A stretch of 44,782 nt of DNA from sequence record SRR20825006_690. One strand, written 5' to 3'. The notes under the pieces are model-generated. The model was not told the origin of the DNA, searched no databases, and saw only the letters and a program-made list of their open reading frames with translations. Position numbers and translations under genes: made by a program. Below, one piece after another: positions 18,311-37,200 of the stretch. Every line of letters begins with the position of its first letter. Positions within the stretch are counted from its first letter, which is position 1.

Positions 18311-18796
18311 ATGAAAAATAAACTGCTTTTTATAGTACTAATAATTATGATCTTACCTGCGCTAGTAATAGCTCAGGATGGTGGCCCAGTTTCTTCGGTC
18401 TTGTCGGTGTATAGAATTACACTTGACGCTGACGGAAAAGAAATAGCCACAATTACAAGTGAGGTAACACCTGGTGATTTGATAGAATACAGGGTCTCAT
18501 ATACAAACAACGATGCAGGGGCAATCACGGCGCTTCAACCGATGCTGCCAATTCCAACTGGAATGGAATTTGTGAAAGACTCTGCTCGTCCTGCCATAAT
18601 AAGTGCCAGTGTTTCCAGTACAGGTACTGATTTCCAATCACTTCCTTTAACCCGACAAGTGCGACGCCCGGATGGAGCGGTAGTTACCGAAGAGGTACCT
18701 GCTCGTGAATTCCGCAGATTAAAATGGATGGTAGAGTCGCTGGACGTAGGGGAAAGTGTAATTCTAGTCGCCCGGGTAAAGGTGATAGACAAGTAG
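18311..18796 (+). CDS. Small secreted single truncated DUF11-like domain protein (candidate chaperone/cap)
   Basis: Signal peptide VIA|Q. PGDLIEYRVSYTN...PIPTGMEFV...LKWMVESLDVGESVILVARVKV matches the DUF11 core but stops before the last strands. Confidence 0.85.
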   Translation: MKNKLLFIVLIIMILPALVIAQDGGPVSSVLSVYRITLDADGKEIATITSEVTPGDLIEYRVSYTNNDAGAITALQPMLPIPTGMEFVKDSARPAIISASVSSTGTDFQSLPLTRQVRRPDGAVVTEEVPAREFRRLKWMVESLDVGESVILVARVKVIDK

Positions 18797-18857: not shown

Positions 18858-21494
18858 ATGAACAAAAACAAACATATACATAGTAAGAAAGCATTAAGCT
18901 TTGTTGGTATGCTGTTGCTTTGCGGGTTGTTTATCGGGCTTTCATCATCTGATGTATTTGCTCAGGTACCTCCAGCAGGTCAAAGCATTGGTAACACTGC
19001 TTCTGCAACGTATAAGGATACTGGTGGGATTACCCGTCCAGCTACTTCTAATACTGTAACAACAATCGTTCAGCAGGTTGCTGGATTGACTATTACTCCA
19101 GGTATTTCTAAAACAGTAAGTCCTGGTAACAACATTGCGTTCTCTCATACAATTACCAATACTGGTAACGGTACTGACAACGTAACTGTTGGTGTAGTTG
19201 ATGCCAATCCTTCTGGCGGAGATTTTGATTATACAAACATCAAAGTTTACGGCGATAATGGTGGTGCACCAGATTTAGGTAATGAAATTACAACTGCGAT
19301 TTCAATTCCTTCTACTGGTTCTAACACATACAAAGTATGGATTGTTGCTTCTGTTCCAGCTGGCGCTTCTGATGGCGATACTGAGAACTTAGTAATTACA
19401 GCTACAAGTGGTGTTGGTGCTAATCCATCTGTAACAGCTACTGATATTGGTACAGTTGCAGAAGATGCAGTAATTAACGTTGTAAAAGCAGCGAATACTA
19501 ATATTGCAGAAGTTGGCGATACACTTACTTATACCTTCACGTACAGTAACACTGGTAACGCAGCTGGTACTAACCTTAGAATCTCTGATGAGTTACCAAG
19601 TAATGTAACTTACATTCCTAACTCTGCAGTTTGGTCTGGTACAGCAGGTAACTTAACGGATGCAGCAGCAGGTGACCCAAGTGGTATTACTTACCAATAC
19701 AAGTCTGGTGTTACTGATTCGGTTATTTATGTAGTATCAACTGTAAACTCAGGTAACTCAGGTACAGTTAGTTTCAAAGCTAAAATTAATACTGGCTCTG
19801 AAGGTGCAACTATTTCCAACGAAGGTTTCTATACTCATGATGACATTACTGGATCAGCATCAACTGGCCAAGTAGATGTTACTATTGACGAAGTTTATGG
19901 TATCGTAGTTCAAGGTCCAGCTGTTGTGTCTTCAGATTCTGTAGATCAAGGTTCTACTGTTGATTTATTGAACAAGTTCACAAATATTGGTACTGATACT
20001 GATAACTTTGCGATTACGTACTCTGGAAATACATTCCCAGCTGGTACTCAAATCTTATTTTACCAAACTAATGGTTCTGGCGTTGCCACTAACCCTTACT
20101 CTGGTAATATAGTAACAGGTATTGCACCGGGCGCTACCATTGAAGTTGTTACTCGTATTAGTCTTCCATTAGGAGCTACAGGTGGTCCGTTTAAATTAGA
20201 CAAGACCTTAACTTCTGATAACGATCCAAGTAAATCAGCAACAATTCGTGACTCTTTAGGCGGTATCTTTACTGCAACTGTAGATCTTACGAATGATTTT
20301 GCTTCAGGTACTGCAGGAGCATTAGGTGAAGGTGTAACTACAAATGGTGAAGTTGCAGCTGTTAAAACTCAATCTGCTCTTCCTGCTACATCTGTTAATT
20401 TTACATTATTCGTAAAAAACACAAGTGATATTGATGACAACTACGGTCTATCATATAGCACAGACAATACTTTTGCAGCTATTACTCTTCCTTCAGGATG
20501 GAGTATTGTATTTAAGGATCCAGCTAACGGTAACAGTATAATTACTACTACTGGCAACATCACTGCAGGTGCAAGCAAGCAAGTTATTGCTTCTGTTAGT
20601 ATCCCAGCTGGTTACGCACCAGGCGACGTTGAAATGTTTTTCCGTGTGTTATCTTCAAACACAGGTGCTAAGGATATTATCCACGATAAAGTAACTGTAT
20701 TAGTTAACCAGAGCATTACACTTAACTCAAGCCAATCAGGTACTATTTTCCCAGGTGGTTCTAAGACGTTTGTTCACTCATTTAATGTGAACTCTAACGT
20801 TGACGAGAATGATGGTACTAACTCTGACTTTGAAATCACACTTTCTAACAGTCAGTCTGGTTACAGTGCTCAGGTTTATGTTGATAATGACAACAACGGT
20901 ATTATTACTAATGTCGATTCACTTATTACAAGTGCAACTAGTGGTGCAAATGGTTTCCCTACTACAGTAGGTACATTAAACTACGGCGACGTTGTTAAAC
21001 TGATTGTTAAAGTAACAGCTCCTGCTGGTGCAACTGTAGGTGATAACAACACTACTACATTATCAATCGCTGATCTTGAATCTAATGTTTCTACGCTTAC
21101 CAACACCGATTTGGTAACTGTACAAACAGGTGTATTGAAGATTGAAAAATATCAGTCTCCAGATTCAGCTAACGTTGCATTTGCTCAAGCAAATTTGACT
21201 TCAGTTCCTGGCGATACCATGTACTACAAGCTTGTTATTTATAATGATGGTTCAGGATTTATTTCTGATATCAACATTAGTGATTCAACTCCTGCTTACA
21301 CAAAAATTGTAGGTTCAGCAGTTCTAGAATTCAATGCAGCAAACTTTGCTGGTACAACTGGTGATCTGGCTCCTTCAATTGTTTCTCAGCCAGCAGATGG
21401 CACAAGTGGAACATTGAGTATTCATATTGATAAGCTAGATGCCTCTGATGATGACGTGGTTATCATATTTGCCGTAAAAATTAATGGCAATTAA
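18858..21494 (+). CDS. Secreted tandem Ig/DUF11 protein (878 aa), candidate fibre shaft subunit
   Basis: Signal peptide VFA|Q; N-terminal PAGQSIGNTASATY...SNTVTTIV segment; four NxGxxxD-type Ig domains; one complete DUF11; C-terminal truncated DUF11. Confidence 0.88.
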   Translation: MNKNKHIHSKKALSFVGMLLLCGLFIGLSSSDVFAQVPPAGQSIGNTASATYKDTGGITRPATSNTVTTIVQQVAGLTITPGISKTVSPGNNIAFSHTITNTGNGTDNVTVGVVDANPSGGDFDYTNIKVYGDNGGAPDLGNEITTAISIPSTGSNTYKVWIVASVPAGASDGDTENLVITATSGVGANPSVTATDIGTVAEDAVINVVKAANTNIAEVGDTLTYTFTYSNTGNAAGTNLRISDELPSNVTYIPNSAVWSGTAGNLTDAAAGDPSGITYQYKSGVTDSVIYVVSTVNSGNSGTVSFKAKINTGSEGATISNEGFYTHDDITGSASTGQVDVTIDEVYGIVVQGPAVVSSDSVDQGSTVDLLNKFTNIGTDTDNFAITYSGNTFPAGTQILFYQTNGSGVATNPYSGNIVTGIAPGATIEVVTRISLPLGATGGPFKLDKTLTSDNDPSKSATIRDSLGGIFTATVDLTNDFASGTAGALGEGVTTNGEVAAVKTQSALPATSVNFTLFVKNTSDIDDNYGLSYSTDNTFAAITLPSGWSIVFKDPANGNSIITTTGNITAGASKQVIASVSIPAGYAPGDVEMFFRVLSSNTGAKDIIHDKVTVLVNQSITLNSSQSGTIFPGGSKTFVHSFNVNSNVDENDGTNSDFEITLSNSQSGYSAQVYVDNDNNGIITNVDSLITSATSGANGFPTTVGTLNYGDVVKLIVKVTAPAGATVGDNNTTTLSIADLESNVSTLTNTDLVTVQTGVLKIEKYQSPDSANVAFAQANLTSVPGDTMYYKLVIYNDGSGFISDINISDSTPAYTKIVGSAVLEFNAANFAGTTGDLAPSIVSQPADGTSGTLSIHIDKLDASDDDVVIIFAVKINGN

Positions 21495-21559
21495 GAAATT
21501 GCATTAACCCAATGAGGTTAGGGTTGAGAGCCCTTTCTTCATCTTAAAAAACAAAGAAC

Positions 21560-24500
21560 TTGAAAAACATCCTTAAACATACACTTCTTTTTGTTCTGCT
21601 TTTAGCAGGCTTGGGAGAGGTATATGCTCAGGATGGAGTTCCTCCGCACAACACGAAAATTGTAAATATTGCAGACGGTACTTATGATAGTGCTAAAGGC
21701 CCGGGTGTTGTACACTCAAACTCTGTATTAATCAATATTGATAATCCAGATAGAATAGATTTATTCCCAAATCATACAGTAAGTGAATTTAGAGGTACGA
21801 GTGTACAATTCAATCATACCCTTACAAACAAATCTCCAAATAGTGATTCTTTCGAAATTCAAATTTTCAATGATGGAGATGATGATTTTGACCTAGAAGA
21901 TTTAAAAATCATTTCGGAAGAAAAGTCTAAATCTGTGGCCACTGATACTCTTAAACTACAAGTTACTCTTGCTGCAGGGCAGTCATTTATATTCAAATAT
22001 CAAGGAACAATCAATACTACGGAGCAAACGAGAATAACTGCAAAGATGGTAATTAGAGCAATATCTCTAACAAGTCTTGACCAGGTAGACAACATTGATG
22101 TTATTTCGATATTAAATGGTACAGAAATTCAACTGAATAAAACGTTTGAAGAAGGTTCCGAGTTTGTTCGTGGCGAAACTTTCAATTATGTATTGGAAGG
22201 TAAAAATATAGGTGATATATCAGCTAATGGTACATCCGTTGTTTTAGATGGAGCACCAGCGTCGAAAGTAATTTTAAGAGATAAAATTCCTGCAAATACC
22301 ACGTTCGACAGATTTGTTAGCACTTCTAAAGGAACTCCAGTTTATCATTTATTTGGTAGTGGTGAAGTTGAATACACTTCAATTATACCAACTAGTTTAG
22401 ATGAAATCGATGAGATTGCTGTTCTCTATGACTCAGTTCAAGCAGGTGAGGCTTTTAGCACAACTTTTAGCGTGAGAATTAATGATGCAGCATCAGACTC
22501 ACTGGTCAACGTAGCTGAAGTAACTTATGTTGATCCTGATGGAGATATTACAAAAGCGGCTGCTTCTCAGGAAGTTGTTGCTGAACTCGAAGAAGGCGAT
22601 GCAGACATCAACTACTTTACAGATGAAGGCTTTGGGCAAAAAACGGGTACATCTACTATTGGGAAGCCACTTTTCTTGCAAGCAAGTGCAGGTGCATGTA
22701 ATGAAAATGCTGGCTTAATTGAAACTGTTCGTATTGAAATTACATCTACGCTTACTGGAGACATGGAAGAGTATGGAGCTACCGAAACAGCTCGTAACAC
22801 TGGTATTTTTAGAGTTGATAACCCTGTGCCAACTAGAAGCGCTGCTGAATTCGAGCAGATAACGGGAAACTTGATTTTAGAGGTACTTGAGCAAGACGTA
22901 TTAATTGCAAAACTTGATTGCCAGAACTCTAAAACACAAAATACTTCAATTACTACTCAAATAATTCTAGATCCTTTTGGAATTGTATTTGACTCAGAGT
23001 CTAACAAACCTGTAGAAGGTGCTTTGGTAAAGTTGATTGATGTAACTGGTGCTGGAAACGGTGGTAATGCTGGTGGTTTAGCTAAAGTTTACGATGTTGA
23101 TGGAGTAACTGAGCTGCCAAATGAGCAAATAACTCCTGCAAATGGTGAGTATCGTTTTCCTTTTATTCAACCAAGTTCTTACCGAATTGAAGTTATAGCT
23201 CCTAAAGGTTACGAAGCCCCATCGCAAGTAAATAAAGCTTTGCTGGATCCAGCAAGAATAGTTAAAGATTCATTGTCATACGGTGGAGTATTTATTATTA
23301 ACGTTATTCCACAATCAATTGAAAGTGATATTCCAATTGATCCAACAGGAACTAATGTTTTATTCACTAAGAAAACAGTTAATAAATCTGCCGTTGAAAT
23401 TGGAGATTACCTTACTTATACAATTACAATTTCTAGTAAAGCGGTAAACAATATCGATTCTACCAAAATTGAAGATCATCTTCCTTTTGGTTTTGAATAT
23501 CAGCTTGGCTCTGCTCGACTAGATGGCGTAGCTTTTTCAGACCCAGTTGGTGGAACTGGTCCAACCTTAATCTTTAATGTTGGTACTGTAAAGCCTTTAA
23601 CCTCTGTTGAACTAAGCTACAAAGTGTATGTAGGACCAGGGGCAGAGCGTGGTGATGGAATAAACACTGCAATTTCAAGCAGTGAAGAAGGTGTTGTACA
23701 CCGCCAAAGTTTACCAGCTAAAGTGAAAGTAGAAGTAAACGGTGGTGTTTTTAGTAACGACGCATATATAGTTGGAAAGGTTTTTGCCGACCTCAACGAA
23801 AATAAAGTTCAAGACCCTTACGAAAAAGGTGTGCCAGGCGTCCGTTTATACTTAGAAACTGGCTCTTATGTTGTAACCGATGTAAAAGGTAGATATACTT
23901 TTTACGGTATTACCCCAAATAAACATGTTCTAAAGCTCGATAACACTTCACTACCTAAGGGTTCTCGTCTTAATATTCTTGATAACCGTCATGCTAACGA
24001 TCCATCAAGCAGGTTTGTGGATTTGAAAAATGGTGAAATGCAACGAGCCGATTTTGCAATTTGTTATTGCGCAGGTGATATTGTTGATGAAGAAATTGAC
24101 CGCCGTATTACTGCATACTCTGAAAACAATGATGAATTAAAGAACTCTTTAAATCAAAGCTTTTCTACAGAAGAACAAGCTACCTCTAAACAAGGTGGTT
24201 ACGGTAACATTAGTGGTGTTGTTGGGGGAGCAGAAGTTAAAGATGTTAAGCGCAATACAACTAGCACAACTAAAGCTGTTGATTCCACTAAAGTGGAAAG
24301 CTCTATCGCTAAAATTGAAGAGCGAGATTTACTCCTAGAAGCTGTTGAAAATGGAAGTCCTGATCTTGAAATGTTAAATATCGTTGATGGTGATACTCTA
24401 AAGTCTACCACATTGAAGCTTCAAGTAAAATCATCATCAAGCGCTACAGTATATTTATATGTTAACGAAGACCTTATTGGTGTAGATAATGTAGGGCGAA

Positions 24501-27500
24501 CTGAAATCAATGAGAATACTGGAGTTCAAGGGCTGGAGTTTTATAACCTAGGTTTAAAAACAGGCAAAAACGTACTTACGCTTCAAGTAAAAGATCCTTT
24601 TGGAAATGTTCGAGAAGAACAGATTGCTACACTTTACGCACCAGGTAAACCGGCTCAATTAGTAATAACTATTCCTAGAAATAATATTGAAGCAGATGGC
24701 GAATCCAAAGCCTTAATTAATGTTGATGTAACCGATGAAAACGGAATGCATATCGGTTCTGAATTTCAAATCACTCTCGATCTATCTGAAGGCAAATTGC
24801 TTGTTCAAGATGAAAACCCTAAAGAACAAGGCACACAAGTTACCCTAAGTTCTGGGAAAGGAAGCTTTACGTTAAAGGCACCAATTGAGCCAAGAACAGT
24901 GAAAATAGTTGCGAAACTAGGAGTTTTAACTGATGAAGCTCGATTAAACTTTGTTCCTAATTTAAGACCTCTAATTGCTGCTGGTATTATTGAAGGTACG
25001 ATTAGACTTAGCGAGCCATTGAGTATTAGCTCTGCGAGCAGTTCTGATGGTTTTGAGCGTGAACTAACAGCTCTTTCTCGTAGTTTCGAGAACTTCACTT
25101 TAGATGGTCGTTTCGCATTCTTCTTAAAAGGTAAAATTGCTGGTAGTACTTTATTAACGGCATCGTACGACTCAGAGAAATCTGAAGAAGAGCGTTTGTT
25201 TAGAGATATAAGGCCAGATGAATTCTATCCTGTTTATGGCGAAACATCGCTAAAAGGATACGATGCACAAAGTTCTGGTAGACTTTATATCCGTTTAGAC
25301 CATAACAAAACCTACGCTGTTTACGGCGATTTCATTACGCAGGAAAGAGACCAAGATCGTCAACTTGGTGATTATAGCCGTGCCCAAACAGGTATTAAAA
25401 CTCATTTCGAAAATGAAATATTAAAAGCTACAGCATTTGGTAGTCAATCTTACTCTAGCAGATTAGTAAGAGAATTCTCTGGACAAGGTATTTCAAGATA
25501 TGAGCTTCCAGATGAAGAGATTGTTATAAATAGTGAGATTATTGAAATTCTTGTTTACGATAGAGATCAACAAGATGTTCTATTAAGTAGTACTCGTTTA
25601 ACACGTTTCAAAGATTATGCGATTGAGCCGTTTACAGGAACATTGGTATTTTCAGAAGCTATTTCTAGTGTAGATGAAAACTTTAATCCTGTTGTGATTA
25701 GAGCCACTTATGAAGTAGAAAACGGTGGCGACAAATACCTTATTGGTGGGGCAGATGTATCAGTTAGCCCAATTGATGGTTTAGAAATTGGAGCTGGTAT
25801 TGTTCAAGATCAAAATCCTGAAGACAATTTCAACCTTACTTCTGTTAATGCTGGCTATAGCATTGGGAAAAACACAAAAATAGTTATTGAAGGTGCTCAA
25901 ACTATTACTGATAGCAAGGGCACGGGCCAAGCAGGTAGAGTAGAAATTCAGCATAAAAATAACTTAGCAAATGTTAGACTTCAGGTTGGTAGATCCGATA
26001 AAGATTTTGCAAACCGATCTACAACATTAAGCAGTGGTAAAACAGAAGCTAAAGTTAAAGGTCGTTTGAAACTGGGTAATTCTTCAAGTTTAAACACCGA
26101 AGCTCTTTATTCTCGTAATGATACTACTGGCAACGAAACTGTTGGTGGCTTAATGACCTTGCAAAAAACATTCTTTGGAAACATCAGTACTGAGTTAGGT
26201 TTGCGCTATTCAAGACAAGAAACAGGTGTTGGTACTACCTCAGCTGAGGTTATTGAGAACACAAACTTAAGAAGTAAGCTTTCTGCGGATCTTCCATTTA
26301 TTGACGGCTTCTCAACTTTTGCGGAATACGAGCAAGATTTAAACAATGCTGATAAGCGTCTTTTTGCATTAGGTGGCGATTATAAAATCAACAACTTTGC
26401 TAAAGTGTATGCTCGCCACGAGTTTTCTTCTTCTGCTGAAGGTAGATACACATTAAACGAGAATGTTAGAAAACAAAACTCGGTATTTGGTATTAAGTCG
26501 AGCTATATGAAGAATGGCGAAGTATATAGTGAATATCGTATTAACGACGCTGTTGACGGTGAAAGTGGACAAGCTTCATTAGGGCTAAGAAATAGTTTTC
26601 AGTTAGCCGATGGCTTTAACTTAAACGCCGGCTTTGAACGTATCTTTACTGTGAAAGGGAAAAGAGGCGGAGACGGAACGGCAATTTCTACGGCCTTAGA
26701 TTACACGGCAAATCCAAACTGGAAAGCTACAGCAAAAGCAGAAGCTCGTTTTACTAGCTCTGACAGAACGTATGTAAACAGTCTCGGTTATGGCCAACGT
26801 ATTAATGAGTCTTGGACATTCTTAGGTAAAAACATTATTGCACTAGCTGAAAAAGCAGGTACTTCAGGCTTTAGCAAAGTTCAAGAAAGATTACGTTTAG
26901 GTGCTGCATATAGAGACGTAGATACCAACAGGTGGGATGCTCTTTTCCGTTATGAATTTAAATACGAAAACGACAAAAATGTAAGTGCTGATTACGAAAG
27001 AAGTGTACACGTTTTCTCAAACCATGCAAACTATCATCCTTCAAATGATTGGACTTTCTCTACTCGTTTAGCTGCAAAATACGCTGTTGAGAATGATACT
27101 GACTTCAGTGAGTCAAGCTTCTTAGAGTTAGCTTCAGGTAGAGCTTTATACGATATCAACGAAAAGTGGGATGCAGGCGTAAACGCTAGTTTGTTAGCAA
27201 ATAGCGACTTTACTACTAAAGATTATGGAATGGGAGTTGAAGTAGGTTTTATTGCAGCAACGAACCTAAGAATTGCAACAGGCTTTAACTTCTTTGGATA
27301 CGATGACGAAGATCTAGTGGATAATTCTTACACAAGAAAAGGTGCTTATTTAGGCTTTAGCTATAAATTTGATGAACGTTTGTTTGAGTCACTTGCGCCT
27401 ACTAAACATAAGCCATTCCTAGATCCAAACTTGTATCTAACCTGTGATGCTGTTGAAGTTTGTAATCCAATATTAATCTTGGATTTAGAAAAAGACTGGT

Positions 27501-28735
27501 TTACCGCAAGCTTAACACCTGCACAAATTGAAGCAGTTAATTTTGTATATGAAGAACTTGAATCACAGACCTTGTTACCTAAACAAATTCACTTTGACAA
27601 CAACTTGACTTATATCAACCGCCCTGCTTCGCAGATGCTTGATAAGGTTGCAAAGTTCTTATTTGAGAGAGACGATTACATTATCAATGTTACCGGCCAT
27701 ACGGATAGTAAAAGTACTTATGCATATAACTTAGACCTCTCTAAGAGAAGAGCAAAAGCAGTAAGAGCTTACTTGGTTGCTTCTGGTGTTGATCCTGACA
27801 GGTTGGTATTTGATGGAATGAGCTTTAACGAGAATGCTGCTGTTGAGAATGATCCAATTGATATGGCTAAAAACAGACGTGTAGAGTTAGATTTAAATTC
27901 AGAAAACTTAAACGTTCGTTTTGTTGACCAAGTAGAAGATTTACAGGTTAACAAAAAAATCCCTGCAATTGGTGGATGGGATTTCATTTATAACCCAGAG
28001 CATAAAGCGGTTCCAGCTAACATCAACCTAACAAATGGTTTCAATCAATTAAGCCCTATTAATAGCTACATGATAGAGCGAATTGCAATTGCATTAAAAG
28101 AATATACTGAAGTAGATGTAACAGTTGGTATTGCTGGCAGTCCTGAGTTTGAAAATATAAGCGAACTTATAGAGGCAGAATTTATTTTTAATGGTATTTA
28201 TGATGACAGAGTTAGCTTCGAAAAAACAACAGGGGCTAATCCTTTTGTAGTTTCATTGACGTATACGAAACCACAATTATTGGAAATCATAGAGCAAAGT
28301 GATGACGTGAAATTTAAAGGGGACAAAAAGGCGTTCAGTATGATGCAGAACTTATTGGATGTTCTTAAAAAGCGTGATGATTACACATTATTACGTGACT
28401 TCTCTCAAACGTATGTAGTTCCAGATAGAATTAAATACGAGGCTCGAATTTCAAAACTAAGTAACGAAAATCAAGCAATTCTATCTAGAATTGGCTCGTA
28501 CTTAAGAAATAGCCAAGGAGTTTATTTAGAGCTTAGAGCAGACGGCTCAGGTACTGGTGCTAGTAGAATGCAAGCAATTAAAGATTATTTAGTGAAATGG
28601 GGAATAGCAGAAGGTAGAATTAGCATCAGTGAGATGGGAAGTGGCTTAGATAGTAATAGAGTGTTGTTCAAGTATCTAAAAGCTGATGCTATCAATCTTT
28701 TGGATATAGACATTCTCTATAGAGGTGGAAATTAA
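21560..28735 (+). CDS. Giant outer-membrane protein: Ig/DUF11/SdrD-B-like domains, large beta-barrel region and OmpA-like C-terminus (2391 aa)
   Basis: Signal peptide VYA|Q; two DUF11 domains; SdrD-B-like GKVFADLNENKVQD...GVPGVRLY; long amphipathic-strand region ~24960-27370 ending GAYLGFSYKF; OmpA motifs GHTDS...YNLDLSKRRAKAV...NRRVEL. Confidence 0.88.
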   Translation: MKNILKHTLLFVLLLAGLGEVYAQDGVPPHNTKIVNIADGTYDSAKGPGVVHSNSVLINIDNPDRIDLFPNHTVSEFRGTSVQFNHTLTNKSPNSDSFEIQIFNDGDDDFDLEDLKIISEEKSKSVATDTLKLQVTLAAGQSFIFKYQGTINTTEQTRITAKMVIRAISLTSLDQVDNIDVISILNGTEIQLNKTFEEGSEFVRGETFNYVLEGKNIGDISANGTSVVLDGAPASKVILRDKIPANTTFDRFVSTSKGTPVYHLFGSGEVEYTSIIPTSLDEIDEIAVLYDSVQAGEAFSTTFSVRINDAASDSLVNVAEVTYVDPDGDITKAAASQEVVAELEEGDADINYFTDEGFGQKTGTSTIGKPLFLQASAGACNENAGLIETVRIEITSTLTGDMEEYGATETARNTGIFRVDNPVPTRSAAEFEQITGNLILEVLEQDVLIAKLDCQNSKTQNTSITTQIILDPFGIVFDSESNKPVEGALVKLIDVTGAGNGGNAGGLAKVYDVDGVTELPNEQITPANGEYRFPFIQPSSYRIEVIAPKGYEAPSQVNKALLDPARIVKDSLSYGGVFIINVIPQSIESDIPIDPTGTNVLFTKKTVNKSAVEIGDYLTYTITISSKAVNNIDSTKIEDHLPFGFEYQLGSARLDGVAFSDPVGGTGPTLIFNVGTVKPLTSVELSYKVYVGPGAERGDGINTAISSSEEGVVHRQSLPAKVKVEVNGGVFSNDAYIVGKVFADLNENKVQDPYEKGVPGVRLYLETGSYVVTDVKGRYTFYGITPNKHVLKLDNTSLPKGSRLNILDNRHANDPSSRFVDLKNGEMQRADFAICYCAGDIVDEEIDRRITAYSENNDELKNSLNQSFSTEEQATSKQGGYGNISGVVGGAEVKDVKRNTTSTTKAVDSTKVESSIAKIEERDLLLEAVENGSPDLEMLNIVDGDTLKSTTLKLQVKSSSSATVYLYVNEDLIGVDNVGRTEINENTGVQGLEFYNLGLKTGKNVLTLQVKDPFGNVREEQIATLYAPGKPAQLVITIPRNNIEADGESKALINVDVTDENGMHIGSEFQITLDLSEGKLLVQDENPKEQGTQVTLSSGKGSFTLKAPIEPRTVKIVAKLGVLTDEARLNFVPNLRPLIAAGIIEGTIRLSEPLSISSASSSDGFERELTALSRSFENFTLDGRFAFFLKGKIAGSTLLTASYDSEKSEEERLFRDIRPDEFYPVYGETSLKGYDAQSSGRLYIRLDHNKTYAVYGDFITQERDQDRQLGDYSRAQTGIKTHFENEILKATAFGSQSYSSRLVREFSGQGISRYELPDEEIVINSEIIEILVYDRDQQDVLLSSTRLTRFKDYAIEPFTGTLVFSEAISSVDENFNPVVIRATYEVENGGDKYLIGGADVSVSPIDGLEIGAGIVQDQNPEDNFNLTSVNAGYSIGKNTKIVIEGAQTITDSKGTGQAGRVEIQHKNNLANVRLQVGRSDKDFANRSTTLSSGKTEAKVKGRLKLGNSSSLNTEALYSRNDTTGNETVGGLMTLQKTFFGNISTELGLRYSRQETGVGTTSAEVIENTNLRSKLSADLPFIDGFSTFAEYEQDLNNADKRLFALGGDYKINNFAKVYARHEFSSSAEGRYTLNENVRKQNSVFGIKSSYMKNGEVYSEYRINDAVDGESGQASLGLRNSFQLADGFNLNAGFERIFTVKGKRGGDGTAISTALDYTANPNWKATAKAEARFTSSDRTYVNSLGYGQRINESWTFLGKNIIALAEKAGTSGFSKVQERLRLGAAYRDVDTNRWDALFRYEFKYENDKNVSADYERSVHVFSNHANYHPSNDWTFSTRLAAKYAVENDTDFSESSFLELASGRALYDINEKWDAGVNASLLANSDFTTKDYGMGVEVGFIAATNLRIATGFNFFGYDDEDLVDNSYTRKGAYLGFSYKFDERLFESLAPTKHKPFLDPNLYLTCDAVEVCNPILILDLEKDWFTASLTPAQIEAVNFVYEELESQTLLPKQIHFDNNLTYINRPASQMLDKVAKFLFERDDYIINVTGHTDSKSTYAYNLDLSKRRAKAVRAYLVASGVDPDRLVFDGMSFNENAAVENDPIDMAKNRRVELDLNSENLNVRFVDQVEDLQVNKKIPAIGGWDFIYNPEHKAVPANINLTNGFNQLSPINSYMIERIAIALKEYTEVDVTVGIAGSPEFENISELIEAEFIFNGIYDDRVSFEKTTGANPFVVSLTYTKPQLLEIIEQSDDVKFKGDKKAFSMMQNLLDVLKKRDDYTLLRDFSQTYVVPDRIKYEARISKLSNENQAILSRIGSYLRNSQGVYLELRADGSGTGASRMQAIKDYLVKWGIAEGRISISEMGSGLDSNRVLFKYLKADAINLLDIDILYRGGN

Positions 28736-30270
28736 TGAAAGGATTCATGGCTACATATAGATTAGTTACAATGCTTGTGATGACACTTGTATTTGGTGCA
28801 GTTGCAGTGGCACAACCATCTGGGTATAAATACTCGAAAAGTGTTACAATAAATGCGTCCCAAGTTCAGGGTACTAATACCGATTTCCCAGTATTAATTA
28901 GTGTTACAGATGCAAACCTTAGTAGCAATGTTGAGAATAGTAACGGCTACGATATCATTTTTACTTCTAATGCAAATGGAACTGGAATATTAAGCCACGA
29001 GCTTGAGAGTTTTAATTCAGGAACGGGCAAATTAACAGCTTGGGTTAAAGTTCCTTCAATAAGTTCGGGATCTAACACTACCATTTATATGTTTTATGGG
29101 AGAAGTTCAGGAACTGCGAATACTTCTACCACAGCGACTTGGGATACTAATTTCAAGTTAGTAATGCACATGGAAGCAAGCCTAGTTGATGCTACCTCTA
29201 ACGGTAACAATGGCTCAAATAATGGAACTGGGGCAGCTACAGGGTTAATTGGAAATGCTAGAGACTTCGAAAGAAATAACGATGACTATATTACTGTAGC
29301 CGACGATAATAGCTTAGATTTAACCAACCAGTTAACTATTTCTTTTTGGCTTAATTTAGAATCAGATATTGAACCTGATTATATCACAAAAGGCCAAAAT
29401 GAGTCCTATGAAATTTCATCTAGAAGTACAAGAAGGCCTTTCTTCAAAAGAAATAATAATTCAAGTTCTTTAAGCTCTGGTACTACTATAGCTCAAGGGT
29501 CATGGGTTTATCTTAGCTATGTAAAAACTACGACACAAAAACTCATTTATATTAATGGGAATTTAGATACCTCACATAATGATTCAGGAAGTTTTGACAC
29601 AAACAGTGATGACCTTCAAATTTCTAGAAGTGGAGATGCTATGGACGGCCTCATGGATGAGATTCGTATTTCAAGCATTCCTCGTTCTGCAAATTGGATT
29701 AAAACAGAATATAACAACCAACTAAATCCAGGTGCATTTATAACACTTGGGCCACAAGTGGAATACATTCCTCCAACAGCTCCTCAAAATGTAGTAGCCA
29801 CTTCATTAGCAGGTGGTAACTTAAGAATTTCTTTTGATGATGTTGACGAATCAGGTTCTGGCGTAGCTAGTTATTCTGTAAAACGATCTGCCACTCAGGG
29901 TGGTCCTTACACTCAAGTTGGAACAGTAACCGATAACGAAAGTGCTATCTATTATTTTGATGATAGCACCGTATCAAACAATGTAACTTATTACTATGTA
30001 GTTACTGCCATTGATGGCGACAACAACGAAAGTGTGATTTCTGCTGAAGTTTCGGCTTTGTCTGATGGTATAATTCCTCCAGCGCCTACAAATGTAAGCG
30101 CTACAAGTCAGCCTGGTGGGGGAATCCTCATAGCTTTTGATGATGTAGACGAAACAGGTTCGGGTGTTAAAGATTATTCAATTCAAAGATCTACTACTCA
30201 AGGTGGACCGTATAGTGGGGTTGGTGTGGTAACAGATAAAAGAAAGTGCGAGCTACACATATACCGATAA
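28735..30270 (+). CDS. N-terminal part of a frameshifted giant adhesin: DUF2341 + LamG/ConA-like lectin + FN3 repeats
   Basis: Signal peptide AVA|Q; DFPVLIS...YDIIFT...AWVKVP...IYMFYG (DUF2341); LamG (IYING...GLMDEIRISSIPRSANWI). The reading frame breaks inside the second FN3 repeat. Confidence 0.85.
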   Translation: MKGFMATYRLVTMLVMTLVFGAVAVAQPSGYKYSKSVTINASQVQGTNTDFPVLISVTDANLSSNVENSNGYDIIFTSNANGTGILSHELESFNSGTGKLTAWVKVPSISSGSNTTIYMFYGRSSGTANTSTTATWDTNFKLVMHMEASLVDATSNGNNGSNNGTGAATGLIGNARDFERNNDDYITVADDNSLDLTNQLTISFWLNLESDIEPDYITKGQNESYEISSRSTRRPFFKRNNNSSSLSSGTTIAQGSWVYLSYVKTTTQKLIYINGNLDTSHNDSGSFDTNSDDLQISRSGDAMDGLMDEIRISSIPRSANWIKTEYNNQLNPGAFITLGPQVEYIPPTAPQNVVATSLAGGNLRISFDDVDESGSGVASYSVKRSATQGGPYTQVGTVTDNESAIYYFDDSTVSNNVTYYYVVTAIDGDNNESVISAEVSALSDGIIPPAPTNVSATSQPGGGILIAFDDVDETGSGVKDYSIQRSTTQGGPYSGVGVVTDKRKCELHIYR

Positions 30271-31280
30271 TTCTGCTGTAAATGGTACTTCTTATTATTA
30301 CGTAGTGGTTGCGCTTGATGGAGCTAATAATGTGAGCTTAGAATCCAATGAAGTTTCTGATGTATCAGATGGAAGTGCTCCAAACGCTCCAAACAATGTG
30401 GTTGCAGCAGGCTTAGCTGGTGGCGACATTCAAGTTTCGTTTGATGACGTTGATGAGACAGGAAGTGGAGTAGCAAGCTATTCGATTAGAAGATCCACCA
30501 CACAAGGAGGGGCATATACACAAGTTGGAGTGATTAATGATAATGAGAGTTCTAGCTATACTTATACCGATAATACAGTTTCAAATGGTACAACCTATTA
30601 CTATGTAGTAGCAACTGTTGATGCTGTTGGAAATACAAGTTCTAACTCTTCCGAAACTTCTTTTACAGCAGATTCGATTATTCCTGTGCTACAATCGGCA
30701 ACTGCGGAAGGAACGATGTTGGTTCTAGATTATAATGAACCTTTAGAGAGTTCACCTGTTCCTAGTAATGGTGATTTTGTTGTAAAAGTGAATAATCTTA
30801 CTAGGAATGTGGCTTCTGTAGCAATAAGTAATGATTCTGTAAAAATTACATTGAGTAGCACAATAATTATCGGTGATAACATCCAGGTAAGTTATACTGC
30901 CGGAACTAATCCAATTCAGGATATTTCTGGAAACGATGCAGTAAACTTAACGAACCAAACTGTTACTAATAATACACCAGATAACACAGCACCTCCTGCA
31001 CCAACTAATGTAGCAGCTTTTGCTCTTGTAGGAAGCGATATTGATATTAAATTTGATGATGTTGATGAAGTAGGGAGTGGTGTTGTTTCTTATTCCATTC
31101 GAAGAGCTACTGTTTCAGGAGGTCCGTATTCACAAATTGGGACAATTACAGATATTGAAAGTGTTAATTACACTTATACCGATAATACAGCGTCTATTGG
31201 CACTACTTATTATTATATAGTGGTGGCAATTGATGCTTCTTCAAATGAAAGCACAAACTCATCAGAAGTAACAGCTGAGT
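29770..31280 (+). repeat. Four closely similar FN3-type repeats in the adhesin
   Basis: Recurrent AP.NV.A...GG.I.I.FDDVDE.GSGV.SYSI.R..T.GGPY..VG...D.ES..Y.Y.D...YYYVV.A.D at ~29770, ~30075, ~30375 and ~30990. Confidence 0.85.
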
Positions 31281-34200
31281 CAGGTACTGTTACGGATGCT
31301 ACCGCTCCAAGTGTATCTACAACTACTGTTTCTGGAAACAGATTGATACTTGATTACAGTGAAGATTTAAATGAAAATTCGGTTCCTTCAACCACTGATT
31401 ATGTAGTTAAAATTAACGGCTCTCCAGCAACAATTTCAGCTGTAGATATTAATGGGGATAAGGTAAGTATTGATTTCACACCAAGTGTAGATGCAGGTGA
31501 TAATATTACCGTAGATTATACCGCTGGAGTAAATCCAATTCGTGATATTGTTGGCAACAACGCCAATAGTTTTACTTCTTTATTAGTTAATAACAGCGCA
31601 GCATTTACTACAGGTTTTGGGCCCGATCCTTGTCCTATCGTAAATGGGAAAGATGCTGCATGGACTTGTTTCGATGGAAGCAACAATGGTACAACCATGC
31701 GTGCTGAAGTTGGTGGGCTTGAAATAGCAACTATTACAGCCGCCTCAGGAAGTCAAACAACATTCTCACCCAATGCACTACAATCTTGGACAAGCGGTGC
31801 TTTTTCTGGTGATGAATTTAACGGCCCACAAATCAATGCTACAGGGAACGGTGGTAATGCTACTTCATTCGATATAAACATTCCTGTAGGTGTGCCATCC
31901 GATGCAATTATGTTATCGTTAAACAGATTACGTCCTGATGGTGGTGGAACTTCGTACACGTTAGAAGCTTTTGACGGAAGTAACACAAAAGTTCCACTTA
32001 ATGGTTGGTTAACTGGGCAAGGATCTGATGGGGGAGTTTGTACAAATTCAGTTAATATTAATTATGCAAATGGAAACACCACTATACAGTTTCAGCCTAC
32101 GGTTTCTGGCGTTCCTGCATGTGCGTCTTCATCAACTCCAGTTTGGTTTAAAATTACAAACGAAAACGTCCGACGGATTGAATTAAGAAAAACAGCTGCT
32201 CAACCAGATAACATTTATTTAGGATTAGCTTTGGTTGCTGACTTTGGTGATGCACCAAACGTTTATGGAACGAGCTACAGTTCAAGAACAGCGCCTCCTG
32301 CTTTTCACCTGCTAAATAATGATGCTCCAAACGTTGTTTATTTCGGTGCTGGCGTAGATGCAGATGGTAACGGTATACCTAGTTCTGCTGCCAATAATGA
32401 TGTAGAGGATGCAATTGTAAACTTTCCAGTTCTTACTTCTGCTACTACAAATTATTCGGTTACATTAAGTTGTACCAACGGTGGAAATGTAGGAGCATGG
32501 ATAGATTTTGATCAGTCAGGATCTCTTGATGAAGGCGAATTTGACTCAGGAATTTGTTCCTCAAATAGTGTAACGCTAAACTGGTCGGGACTTTCTGGAA
32601 TGATTACAGGAACGTCTTATGCTCGTTTCAGAATTGCAAGCAGCGCTAATGAAGTAGCTACACCAACAGGTTCTGCAAAAGATGGTGAAGTTGAAGATTA
32701 TCAAATAACTATTTCTGAGCCAAAAACACCAGATTTGAGTCTTGTTAAATCGGTTAATAACTCTACTCCAATTGTGGGAGAAACCATCACCTATACGTTA
32801 ACTGTAACTAACCCTGGTGAATATATTGCTACCGATGTTAGAGTTACAGATGTGCTCCCTGCTGGCGTTACATTTGTAAGCTCAACTGCTAGTCAAGGTA
32901 ATTATAATAACGTAACGGGTGTTTGGATTATAGGCAACTTTGCTGCTGGCGATACTACTATTGCTACACTAGATATAGAAGCTTTAGTTGATGCTGGCAC
33001 TTTAGGTTCGGTTATTACCAACTCGAGTTCAATTTCGAACTTAAACGAAACAGATTTAAACCTTGCCAATAACTCTTCTGAAACGGGTATTACCGTTGTT
33101 CCAGAATCTGCTGATATCGGGATTACAAAAATAGCGAGTAACGCAAACCCAATTGAAGGCGAGTTTATGTCCTTTACGGTTTCAGTTACTAACAACGGGC
33201 CAAAAGCAGCAACGAATCTTAAAATTCTGGACCAATTACCTACAGGTATTACATATCAAGATTCTTTGCCAAGTGTAGGTATTTACAATCCCTCAACAGG
33301 AATTTGGGACATTGGAAATTTAGCTAATGGAGCAAGTGCTTCATTAATTCTAAACGTTAGAGTAGATGGAAGCACTCAAGGAAATACCATAAATAATACG
33401 GCTGCACTTAATGGAATGGACCAATCAGATTCTAATTCCCAAAATAACACAGCAACTGCTTCTATTACCATAGTTCCACCAATAGCTAATTTATCGTGTG
33501 GACTTCCATACTTGAAATTCCGAAACGCGTCACTTATATCAGGGAGTGCGCTGCAAATAGGGGCCGTATATAAATTTCCGAATGTTCTTACTGGGGTTTA
33601 TGCAAAAGTTGAAATTGTTACTATTAATAACGCCACAATAAAGAATATTGATGATGGCGTTACAAGTGGTCTACCAAATGAATTTTCTCCCTTTATAGAA
33701 AATACAACTGGTGGTAACGGTTACCTTGACTTTGAGATCTCATTTTATGATTCGGCGTCTAATCTTTCTCGTTATTTATCTTTCGCAGCTACTACTTCCG
33801 ATGTTGATGGGACTGGTGATCTGAAGGATTTTGTTGGATATCAAAATCTAAACTCATTTATAGTTGAGAATACAACTGAACTGGTTGTTGGTACAGAAGG
33901 GTTATACACAACTTTTACTTCAAATGACTTTTCAGATACTTCGCCTAATCAGAATGATTATTCAGAATACAAAGTCTATACATCTTACACTAATGAGCCA
34001 AAATTTAGGCTTCGTGCAGGGATAAAAGCTGGAAACACAGTTGATGATCGTATTATTTCAGTAAATTTTGATCCTTGTGAGATTAATACATTCAATGATC
34101 CTGTAACTCAAAGTGTGGTCGATGTTGGTGTAACAAAATCTGTTGATGATAATTCAGTTACTGTTGGTCAAACTGTAACCTATACTGTACAAGCTGCCAA

Positions 34201-37200
34201 TAAAAAAGCTAATGCTGTGGGGAGTGTGAAAATTACAGATCAACTTCCAGGGGGTTTGACTTACGTTTCTTCTAACCCAAGTCAAGGTACTTATAACAGC
34301 GGAACTGGCATTTGGGACGTTGGGTCACTTTCAGGATTACAAGTTGCTACTATTGATATTGTAGCAACAGTAAATACTGGTCAGCAAGGAAATACCATTA
34401 CTAACACTGCAACTCTAAGCGATAATAGCGGCGTAGATGGAGTTGCCGCAAATAATACAGCATCAGTAGCAATCGCTGTATTTGATCCAAACTCTGGATT
34501 GAGTTGTACTGAACCGCCTAAATATTCTTTTATCAATTATAACCTTGAACAAGGGTCTAATAATCAAGTAAATTCGATTTACCGTTTTTCTAGTGTAGCA
34601 TCTGGTGTGGATGCAAAGGTAAAGATTATAGGAATTAATAACGCCACAATAAACGCTTTAGATGATGATGGAACAGTATCAAGTGGACAAGCAACTACCA
34701 CTAACTTCTCGCCATTATTTACCACAAATAATGGTACAAGTGCAGGTTATATCGATTGGGAAATTACATTTGTTGAGGCTGGAACTAATACTCCAATAAA
34801 AAGTAATTTCTCTGTTACTGCCTTAGATATTGATGGTACAAGTTCGGGTGGACAAACTATTCGAGATTATTATGGTTTTGCTCAGAATTTGTCTTCTACT
34901 GTTCAAGCTGGAAATAATATTAACGTAAGTACTCAAGGCCCATTTCAAATCTTTGAATCTTCGGTAACAAGTGATGCCAATGGTTCTTTCGATATCGATC
35001 ATATGGCGTATATTTCTTATAAATATACTTCTGTCTTTCAAGTTAGGTCTGGTTCTTTCCCAACGGGAGGGTACTCGAGTCAACGTATGGTTGAGTTTAA
35101 TTTTACGGAATGTTTGAATCAGGAATTTACAAACCCTGTTATAACAACTAGAGATGCTGATTTACAAGTTACAAAAACAGTAGATCAAGCTAATCCTTTA
35201 GAAAACGAAACCGTTAACTTCACAATCAGTGTTAAGAATAATGGACCTGAAGATGCTACAGAAGTTTCAATTAACGAGGCATTGCCAGCAGGCATTACTT
35301 TAGTTGAAGCTGTTCCAAGTCAAGGAACTTATAACCAAATTACAAAGCTTTGGAATCTTGGAACACTTGCAAATAACGCAACAGCTACCTTAGCACTCGA
35401 AACAACTATTAATCAAGGTTTGAGCCAAGATTCTTTGATTAACAAAGCATATGTAAAAGGCTTTAACCAGTACGATCCAACCATAGCAAACGATACTTCT
35501 CAGGTTGTATTGAAAGTTAGCGTTCAAGTAACTGGTACGGTGTTTAGAGATAAAACAGGCGATGGAATTACCGATGGCGATACCAATTTTGGAGATGCTT
35601 CAGGTGATCAACAAGCATTAGAAAATGTAGAAGTGCATCTCTTTAAAGACGGAGGAGATGGACTCGCTAACGGTGTGGATGATATCTACAAAGCTACAGT
35701 TCTGACAAACAACCAAGGAAAGTATGTATTCCAAATAGGTGAAAATGCGCCTTACTGGATTGCTGTAGATTCAAAAACTGGTGGGCTTTCGAATAACACC
35801 ACTTGGGCAGAACAAACGTATGCTCCAATTAACGCTCTTTGCAACGATGGTAATGGTGGAACCGATACTACAACAGTTGCTGGAAATTGCTTTGGTGGTA
35901 GAAGAGGTGGCGTTTCAGATAATATATCTACAAATCCTGTAGCCAGTGATTTGGCAAATGCTGAACACGTGGCTAAAGTTGCTGTATATGGTGGTGGTAC
36001 TACCGGTATCGACTTTGGTTTTAGCTTTAACGTAGTTACTGACGTTAGAGATGGTGATGATGATGGTTCCACTGCTCGTTCCATTCAAGGTTCGCTGCGT
36101 CAATTTATTGCAAACGCCAATGCAATTACTGGTGCGAATTCAATGCGATTTGTACCAGCGGTACCAACAAATCAATCATCTGGTGGGGGTAATTGGTGGT
36201 CTATTACGGCTTCATCGGCATTTCCGGCAATCACAGATGCACTTACAACCGTTGACGGTTCTGCTTTCGATCAATTTGCTCCTGTAACAGAAATGGACGA
36301 TAACTCTGGTTCTATCGGAACAGGCGGAAGTGTAGGTTTAGATTTACTTTCTATAAACTCTGCTAGTTTAAAAGAGCTAGAACTGAACTTAAATGATATT
36401 GGAGCAAGCGCTCTAAACATAAATAGCTCTGGTGCAGTTATAATTCGAGATTTAGCGATTTACAATAACAGTGTTGGTATTCAAATTACTTCGATGTCTG
36501 GCGGAACCATAGAAAATAACATGATTGGTACACGTGCAAATGGCGTTGACCCAACCGGTTCATCTAGATTAGACAAAGGTATTTCAGTAGTTGGAAGTGG
36601 CTCACTTTCGGCTCTTATAACTAAGAATTATATCGCATATGCAAATACAACGGGTGTTGCTGGTGATAACCCAAGTTCAAGTGTAACCCTATTTAAGAAT
36701 GAGGTTTATAAGAATGGTTTAGTTTCGGCAGGTGGCGATGGTATTGAAATAATCGGTACTTGGTCGGTCGAACAAAACTTAATTCACGAATCTGGTAATT
36801 CTTCCAGCTCCCCAATATCAGGCGGAAACGGTATTGAGATTGGTAAAGCTTCAGGTTTAAGCACAGGTAGCACCATTCGAAATAACACCATCATAAATAA
36901 CAGTGTTACAGGTATTAACGTATTTAACAACGTAACCAACACCGTTATTGAAAAGAATATAATTACTGGAAACGGAACCAATTATTCGTCGGCAAACACG
37001 CGACTTGGAGCAGGTGTTAAACTCACTTTCCCAAATACTCAGCCTCAGAATGGAATTAAGATTACTAATAACAGCTTTGCAAATAATTATGGTTTAGCAA
37101 TTGATATCGTTACCTCTGGTTCTGGGCAAGCTGATGGAGTTTCAGGTAATGATGGCGTTCTAGAGTCCACTTCAACTGAGCCAAACAGAGGAATTGATTA

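Follow-up and report, generated by a model that had tools for sequence, protein, structure and literature searches.

A four-gene operon predicted to encode a tip-shaft-anchor surface fibre whose subunits are probably joined through split CLIPPER domains

The 44,782-nucleotide stretch of DNA from sequence record SRR20825006_690 (the window, by which we mean the whole stretch analysed) carries a one-direction run of genes on its + strand (18311-38956) encoding a small protein, a shaft, an anchor and an adhesin, the last present as two open reading frames (ORFs). We propose that this operon probably builds a surface fibre composed of tip, shaft and anchor, locked by spontaneous Lys-Asn isopeptide bonds that form in a split version of the CLIPPER domain (Pfam DUF11). 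That this domain is divided between polypeptides and complemented in trans we regard as very likely, and that the resulting link between subunits would be covalent, as its residue pattern suggests, we regard as likely, with less assurance. The host was judged to be a diderm bacterium, of the Balneolaceae according to the names of relatives. The features on which the argument draws are the following (aa, amino acids; Ig, immunoglobulin; AF2, AlphaFold2):

18311..18796, + strand: small secreted protein, 161 aa (TIGR01451, Pfam DUF11, hhalign).
18858..21494, + strand: shaft subunit, 878 aa, with signal peptide, donor hairpin, five complete Ig-like domains and C-terminal acceptor.
18963..19082, + strand: donor hairpin of the shaft, aa 36-75, equivalent to beta8 and beta9 (conservation, hhalign, complex model).
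21123..21491, + strand: acceptor domain of the shaft, aa 756-878, with the last two strands missing; K764 at 21147-21149 and D809 at 21282-21284.
21560..28735, + strand: anchor, 2391 aa, with signal peptide, donor hairpin, two complete CLIPPER domains, CarboxypepD_reg/SdrD_B/Big_1-like domains, a giant beta-barrel and OmpA.
21629..21745, + strand: donor hairpin of the anchor, aa 24-62, with the N36 codon at 21665-21667 (alignment of 73 anchor ORFs).
24965..27409, + strand: beta-barrel region of the anchor, aa 1136-1950 (AF2 model, Foldseek).
27593..27877, + strand: OmpA-like peptidoglycan-binding domain of the anchor, aa 2012-2106 (Pfam OmpA, E 1.1e-21).
28735..38956, + strand: putative tip adhesin, ORFs of 511 aa (28735-30270) and 2883 aa (30305-38956), split by a frameshift.
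38642..38953, + strand: acceptor domain of the adhesin, aa 2780-2883, with K2788 at 38666-38668 and D2822 at 38768-38770 (Pfam DUF11).

In the proposed assembly, the adhesin and the shaft each end in a CLIPPER domain that has strands 1-7, with Lys on strand 1 and Asp on a middle strand, and is devoid of strands 8-9, while the shaft and the outer-membrane anchor start, right after the signal peptide, with an Asn-bearing beta8-beta9 hairpin. Entering the open domain of its neighbour, the hairpin would complete the fold and unite Lys, Asp and Asn, and a Lys-Asn isopeptide bond would then arise spontaneously with loss of ammonia (NH3). The order of the subunits would be set by the halves they carry: the adhesin, with an acceptor only, would form the tip, the shaft, with both halves, would be inserted once or repeatedly, and the anchor, with a donor only, would form the base, held in the outer membrane by its giant beta-barrel. 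The shaft may polymerise.

The initial annotation of this DNA had presented DUF11 as a domain proposed to form isopeptide bonds, which is correct as to the proposal but falls short of the present state, given that the bond has by now been shown in a crystal structure (PDB 9IFR). According to the available part of PMC12617251, DUF11 (PF01345) has been renamed CLIPPER, and 9IFR, from an adhesin of Acinetobacter silvestris, folds as a CnaA-like sandwich of nine strands in which K715 and N806 are joined by an isopeptide bond, with D748 alongside; from the positions of these residues in the 708-828 domain, we assign the Lys to strand 1 and the Asn to strand 8. DUF11/TIGR01451 repeats were detected in every protein of the operon by Pfam and NCBIfam scans. 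As the initial annotation had described, all seven complete DUF11 domains (one in the shaft, two in the anchor and four in the adhesin) keep the Lys, the Asp or Glu and the Asn, the fourth adhesin domain having Glu in place of Asp. The one complete CLIPPER among the five complete Ig-like domains of the shaft carries K210, D244 and N321. Also as described, the two C-terminal acceptors keep only the Lys and the Asp; both have the SDxxPAYT motif (ISDSTPAYT and VSDTVPAYT), and both stop before beta8, with no Asn there. A script-based check of the codons placed every residue where it had been assigned: in the shaft, 18963 encodes Q36, with which the mature protein is predicted to begin, 18993 encodes N46 (codon 18993-18995), 21147 encodes K764 and 21282 encodes D809, whereas in the other proteins 21665 encodes N36 of the anchor, and 38666 and 38768 encode K2788 and D2822 of the 2883-aa adhesin ORF.

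Profile comparisons indicate how the two halves fit together. The adhesin acceptor matches positions 3-84 of the 114-position Pfam DUF11 profile (E 1.8e-10, 41.6 bits, cut-off 24.6) and the shaft acceptor matches positions 10-81 of 114 (E 0.0018), and each protein ends there. Aligned by hhalign with the complete DUF11 domain of the shaft itself, the shaft acceptor profile covers positions 7-116 and brings K764 onto K210 and D809 onto D244 (probability 96.9%, E 1.7e-10), and the donor profile built from the mature N-terminus covers positions 114-133 (E 0.0033), with N46 on N321; therefore, the two pieces tile a single DUF11/CLIPPER domain. These equivalences were taken from hhalign and family alignments; MAFFT --addfragments misplaced the shaft acceptor and the anchor donor. 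The acceptors match the family profile and do not hold the Lys (beta1)-Asp/Glu-Asn (beta8) triad in a single chain, and they are split CLIPPER members whose triad is complete only with a hairpin from another chain. The assignment of N46 and N36 as the donated Asn residues is supported, the two missing strands being provided by the N-termini of the mature shaft and anchor, but the donor proved to be a two-strand hairpin (beta8 and beta9, approximately residues 43-71) and not one strand. Its IGNxAxxxYxD segment corresponds to strand 8 and its TSNxVxT segment to strand 9, and the anchor N-terminus has the same pattern.

The residues concerned are strongly conserved. Of 8000 candidates scored against the shaft, 844 matched it at E 1e-3 or better, and the alignment made from the best 120 of these 844, all of 728-924 aa, comprises the window shaft and 119 homologues down to 35% identity. 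The donor columns I44, N46, A48, Y52, D54, S64 and N65 were each identical in 120/120 sequences, and the acceptor residues K764 and D809 were each present in 118/120, the remaining two being gaps. In a subset of 78 shaft sequences, eight of the 46 invariant columns lie within residues 44-65 (I44, N46, A48, Y52, D54, T63, S64 and N65), and the K210/D244/N321 triad of the intact shaft CLIPPER is likewise invariant. Among 73 anchor ORFs from other loci, the donor residues are kept in 68 (N36), 62 (I34), 61 (A38), 65 (S53), 65 (N54) and 71 (V56). Adhesin acceptors from several phyla, in proteins of 505-2883 aa with complete C-termini, have the Lys in 21/21 and the Asp in 21/21 cases, and all 21 stop 1-3 residues beyond the last acceptor strand. 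This combination of triad conservation and truncation is far beyond chance.

The acceptor and the hairpin were also modelled together, in a two-chain prediction with shaft residues 745-878 and 36-80 and three controls. The interaction prediction score from aligned errors (ipSAE) was 0.86, 0.87 and 0.86 for the donor-acceptor pair, against 0.00 for the best control, with partner pLDDT (predicted local distance difference test) values of at least 84 and contact agreement between runs of at least 98%; in calibration, the ipSAE mark was attained by 51 of 78 solved complexes and by 2 of 108 mismatched pairs. Donor residues 44-57 run antiparallel to the Asp strand (800-809) and donor residues 62-72 along the Lys strand (756-766), a pairing that, as modelled, is the arrangement expected for CLIPPER strands 8 and 9. 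From the register of the printed contacts, A48 would stand opposite D809 and, hence, N46 would lie on the same face two residues along. Thus, profile tiling and the complex model both place the donor hairpin at its canonical position, in agreement with the earlier suggestion that complementation rebuilds the triad, and they show the pairing of an incomplete Ig-like fold with a fitting N-terminal extension that characterizes donor-strand systems.

A second Asn of the donor, in the TSN segment, is also highly conserved, in 120/120 shafts (N65, 19050-19052) and in 65/73 anchors (N54, 21719-21721). It could either set the docking register or be an alternative reactive Asn. As K764 contacts residues 64, 65 and 67 in the complex model, N65 was considered as the reactive residue of first choice, but it was set aside because it is N46, and not N65, that aligns with the invariant N321, and because the intact shaft domain has no conserved Asn in its last strand.

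The product of the first gene of the operon offers an internal comparison for the acceptors. The small protein matches TIGR01451 (E 2.7e-6) and positions 10-84 of 114 of Pfam DUF11 (E 0.013), and it aligns with the shaft acceptor profile with a probability of 95.7% (hhalign, E 9.9e-9) and a shared end point; in the ESM Atlas it retrieved only generic 'DUF11/TIGR01451' names. Judging from these alignments, the protein is paralogous to the truncated acceptor domain but lacks the catalytic residues: the column equivalent to the Asp holds Leu in 83/87 sequences, and the column equivalent to the Lys, assigned via a MAFFT --addfragments alignment, holds Lys in 33/87 and Arg in 31/87. Since the small protein keeps the fold without Asp and Lys, these residues are dispensable for folding, and a chemical role is indicated by their being invariant in the acceptors of the shaft and the adhesin. 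The small protein probably binds donor hairpins non-covalently and reversibly, acting as a periplasmic chaperone or as a cap. A total of 87 small-protein ORFs were found across 88 sources, and the gene adjoins the shaft gene in 14 other loci listed.

Several lines of evidence bear on whether complementation takes place between chains. In the AF2 model of the full-length shaft (mean pLDDT 89.3, predicted template modelling score, pTM, 0.54), five complete domains stand between the hairpin and the acceptor, a separation on which the initial annotation had based its view that self-closure is less likely. That view is upheld, and a stronger argument for it than this steric one comes from comparison: adhesins possess an acceptor but lack a donor, the reverse holds for anchors, and this division recurs in operons of many phyla. 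As the adhesin and the anchor have no partner within their own chain, complementation in trans is needed in the system anyway. In the nearest genome (G001), acceptor-type matches are confined to this operon, and in a congener with two operons (G029) there is one shaft acceptor and one adhesin acceptor per operon. A Foldseek search with the full shaft model retrieved only generic tandem-Ig proteins (ciliary central-pair proteins, complement C5 and titin), with template modelling (TM) scores of 0.10-0.21.

Other explanations of these data have to be considered. One is that the shaft closes on itself, its own hairpin completing its own C-terminal domain, with only the adhesin and the anchor joined in trans. 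It could be supported by the monomer AF2 model, which folds the N-terminal hairpin confidently (pLDDT about 87-92) at a pTM of only 0.54 and so allows self-closure, and structure predictors often self-complement donor-strand subunits. We nevertheless consider this explanation improbable, given the five complete domains that separate the shaft ends, the anchor donor and the adhesin acceptor that are partnerless in their own chains, and the want of an evident role for a self-closed shaft in a strictly conserved four-gene module. Even less credible, to the point of being very nearly dismissed, is that there is no complementation at all, the C-terminal domains being stable seven-strand Ig variants, the hairpin a part of the first domain and the likeness to the triad a coincidence. 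Compact seven-strand relatives of DUF11 do exist (DUF7507, described in the available part of PMC12617251), and the 45-aa donor fragments alone match no Pfam family; however, the donor and acceptor profiles tile a complete domain without overlap, the same pattern is seen across phyla in each of three proteins, the docking model is a confident one when set against its controls, and the Asn of DUF7507, as far as the same source describes it, stays inside its domain.

A more serious possibility, though still an unlikely one, is that complementation joins the subunits non-covalently, as in chaperone-usher or type V pili, and that packing or hydrogen bonding is the reason why Lys, Asp and Asn are conserved. 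In its favor, the complex model printed contacts without K764-N46 bond geometry, the fold of the small protein tolerates the loss of Asp and Lys, and the hairpin is retained even in the 4/73 anchors without the donor Asn. On the other hand, the triad shows little or no variation at the very positions at which the homologous intact domain has a proven bond, and the small protein, a paralogue from which reversible binding is expected, is the only one to have lost these residues. Along with the monomer model, other observations weigh against a covalent fibre with split domains, or at least against parts of it. The K764-N46 pair is not among the 25 lowest-error contacts of the complex model, in which K764 is listed as touching residues 64, 65 and 67, and the complex predictor, whose alignments were not used, may pass the halves of a split domain by their likeness to solved intact domains. 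The shaft acceptor alone reaches 19.0 bits, under the Pfam DUF11 cut-off of 24.6, and the alignment of the donor to the intact template is short and, taken by itself, weak (hhalign probability 9.7%). N36 is replaced in 4/73 anchors (Ser in two, Ala in two), with one further gap, and the adhesin gene is frameshifted in the window at an A-rich stretch (approximately 30230-30250), the FN3-like repeat resuming in the next frame. This frameshift is either a sequencing error or a strain or phase variation; in G001, whose shaft is 99% identical, the adhesin is one open frame of 3410 aa. Having weighed these points, we retain inter-subunit isopeptide bonds as the preferred reading.

The anchors with Ser or Ala in place of N36 are those of loci L044, L054, L061 and L075, where the remainder of the hairpin is kept. 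The link at the base may be non-covalent in some lineages.

With regard to the subunits placed at the two ends of the fibre, the adhesin consists of a signal peptide, DUF2341, LamG, SWM repeats, GEVED, four complete CLIPPER domains, a beta-helix, SdrD_B and the C-terminal acceptor. Residues 1136-1950 of the anchor are modelled by AF2 as a very large antiparallel barrel of about 40 long strands (pLDDT 77.9, pTM 0.69). The best Foldseek matches of this barrel are giant outer-membrane barrels (Deinococcus SlpA, SprA of the type IX secretion system, LptD and MtrB), with TM scores of only 0.14-0.30, low values from which no family can be assigned. It is tempting to speculate that such a barrel could export the other subunits. 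A cluster of short strands lies inside it (barrel-model residues 176-252, anchor aa about 1311-1387, 25490-25720) and may be a plug or an inserted domain. In the window, the anchor extends past the barrel (27593-28735) into the OmpA domain, followed by some 280 aa of additional C-terminal sequence, whereas in other phyla the protein ends at the barrel end. The OmpA-containing C-terminal part was matched in 33 ORFs and was unmatched in eight listed anchors outside the Balneolaceae-like loci (L035, L038, L044, L045, L062, L064, L070 and L077).

The module is widely distributed. Among the matches listed, which come from species-representative genomes, relatives are encoded in at least 516 of at least 599 pattern-matched stretches, and the four genes are kept together in Balneolaceae, Burkholderiales, Verrucomicrobiota, Acidobacteriota, Eisenbacteria, Armatimonadota and others, the carriers including isolates named Polaromonas sp. 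and Comamonadaceae bacterium. Outside the Balneolaceae-like set, 51 of 51 loci gave matches to the small protein, to the shaft and to the anchor, and 36/51 to the adhesin, before which many loci end; cross-matches between shared DUF11 repeats may have inflated these counts. The genes flanking the operon in the window, which encode an M23 peptidase, a DUF58/VWA protein, a response regulator, RecO and a DegP-type protease, were matched in 0/51 of these loci. No enzyme or ligase gene is conserved with the four genes, in line with the initial claim that bond formation needs no enzyme, and Pfam and NCBIfam scans of the operon and its flanks detected neither sortase nor transglutaminase. In the sample from the phylum of the window, the shaft was found in 6/61 genomes, in 6/6 of one genus and in 0/2 from other genera of the family, and this pattern therefore indicates a patchy spread; horizontal transfer is probably how the module has spread, judging from its distribution. 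The congener G029 has two whole copies of the module (G029:C1, approximately 2058784-2070697 and 2440477-2460169), whose shafts are 40-47% identical to that of the window, and the two may be orthogonal fibre systems in one cell.

A scan of the window for promoters and terminators gave nothing exceeding the shuffled expectation. A terminator-like hairpin is present between the shaft and anchor genes (21520-21534; one site, against a shuffle mean of 2.1), and it might raise the shaft:anchor ratio.

The proposed fibre shares features with several known systems and coincides with none of them. The domain in 9IFR belongs to the same family and has the same triad positions, and the operon itself also has seven intact copies of it; in 9IFR, as described in the available part of PMC12617251, the bond lies within one chain and stabilises a stalk domain, whereas here strands 8-9 and the Asn are on another polypeptide. 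In that part of the article, the words 'split' and 'operon' each occur 0 times. Closer in principle are the threads of Sulfolobus acidocaldarius, for which the accessible portion of PMC9715654 likewise reports complementation by an N-terminal donor strand and a proposed enzyme-free intermolecular isopeptide bond, without chaperone-usher genes. As that portion describes them, these threads differ in being archaeal, in consisting of a single subunit and in having no outer-membrane anchor or tip adhesin, and their bond links the alpha-amine of the N-terminal residue Asp24 with Asn57 in subunit n+2 (PMC9715654), whereas here the triad of Lys, Asp and Asn belongs to a CnaA-like domain that is split. 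BsaA of Clostridium perfringens, a member of the TasA family, is described in the available part of bioRxiv 10.1101/2024.11.04.621531 as assembling by 'exchange and lock', in which an N-terminal segment enters the sheet of the neighbour and an isopeptide bond follows; mutation of the bond residues abolishes the oligomers. This system is Gram-positive, has the TasA fold and forms a homopolymer by donation of a single strand, for which it needs SipW as well as genes of type IV pili. The subunits studied here show only DUF11-type and other Ig-like domains in Pfam and NCBIfam, and the conserved module has no signal peptidase gene. Both the Sulfolobus threads and C. perfringens BsaA are precedents for the principle of a 'natural Tag/Catcher'.

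In the ordering of its subunits, the proposed fibre follows the logic of the chaperone-usher pili (type 1 and P), in which the tip has a groove and no donor, the shaft has both, and an N-terminal extension completes an Ig fold. Those pili are, however, non-covalent, receive a single donated strand and depend on a PapD-like chaperone and a FimD/PapC usher. Neither of these families was detected in any operon protein with Pfam and NCBIfam, and no usher is among the 50 Foldseek matches listed for the barrel. Sortase pili, found in Gram-positive bacteria, are covalent fibres of Ig-like pilins with internal isopeptide domains, but their subunits are joined by sortase-catalysed bonds at LPXTG, whereas the proteins of this operon end at the truncated domain, without a sorting signal. 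The Pfam and NCBIfam scans gave no sortase family, and the termini read '...VKINGN' in the shaft and '...VKINQ' in the adhesin, although no separate search for an LPXTG motif was made. In SpyTag/SpyCatcher, an isopeptide-forming Ig-like domain is similarly divided, giving a reactive peptide and a shortened domain between which ligation is spontaneous (available parts of PMC6539128 and PMC5487036). Such Tag/Catcher pairs are man-made, mostly derived from CnaB and based on a one-strand tag, in contrast to a natural, CnaA-like pair that has a two-strand hairpin and would order a fibre. The 'grappling hook' DUF11 protein of Litorilinea was also considered and set aside as a single 6596-aa protein unrelated to a split domain.

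Neither a CLIPPER/CnaA domain split by nature nor this operon was described in the literature covered by full-text searches, a collection with few subscription journals and no supplements. It is an evenly balanced question, in our estimate, whether the operon stands for an undescribed class of Gram-negative fibres, spread over many phyla, with ordered and enzyme-free covalent joining of split CnaA-like subunits, a two-strand Tag/Catcher, a dead catcher serving as chaperone or cap, and an anchor with an export pore. Covalent pili are regarded as Gram-positive and sortase-dependent, and Gram-negative pili as non-covalent. If the proposed assembly is true, four genes would suffice to give diderm bacteria a sortase-free covalent fibre, widespread in environmental phyla, and a common domain that stabilises single chains would have been turned into an assembly device. 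The architecture of such fibres would then be readable from sequence by the donor/acceptor rule, and their subunits would provide natural, orthogonal Tag/Catcher pairs of the hairpin type for protein engineering.

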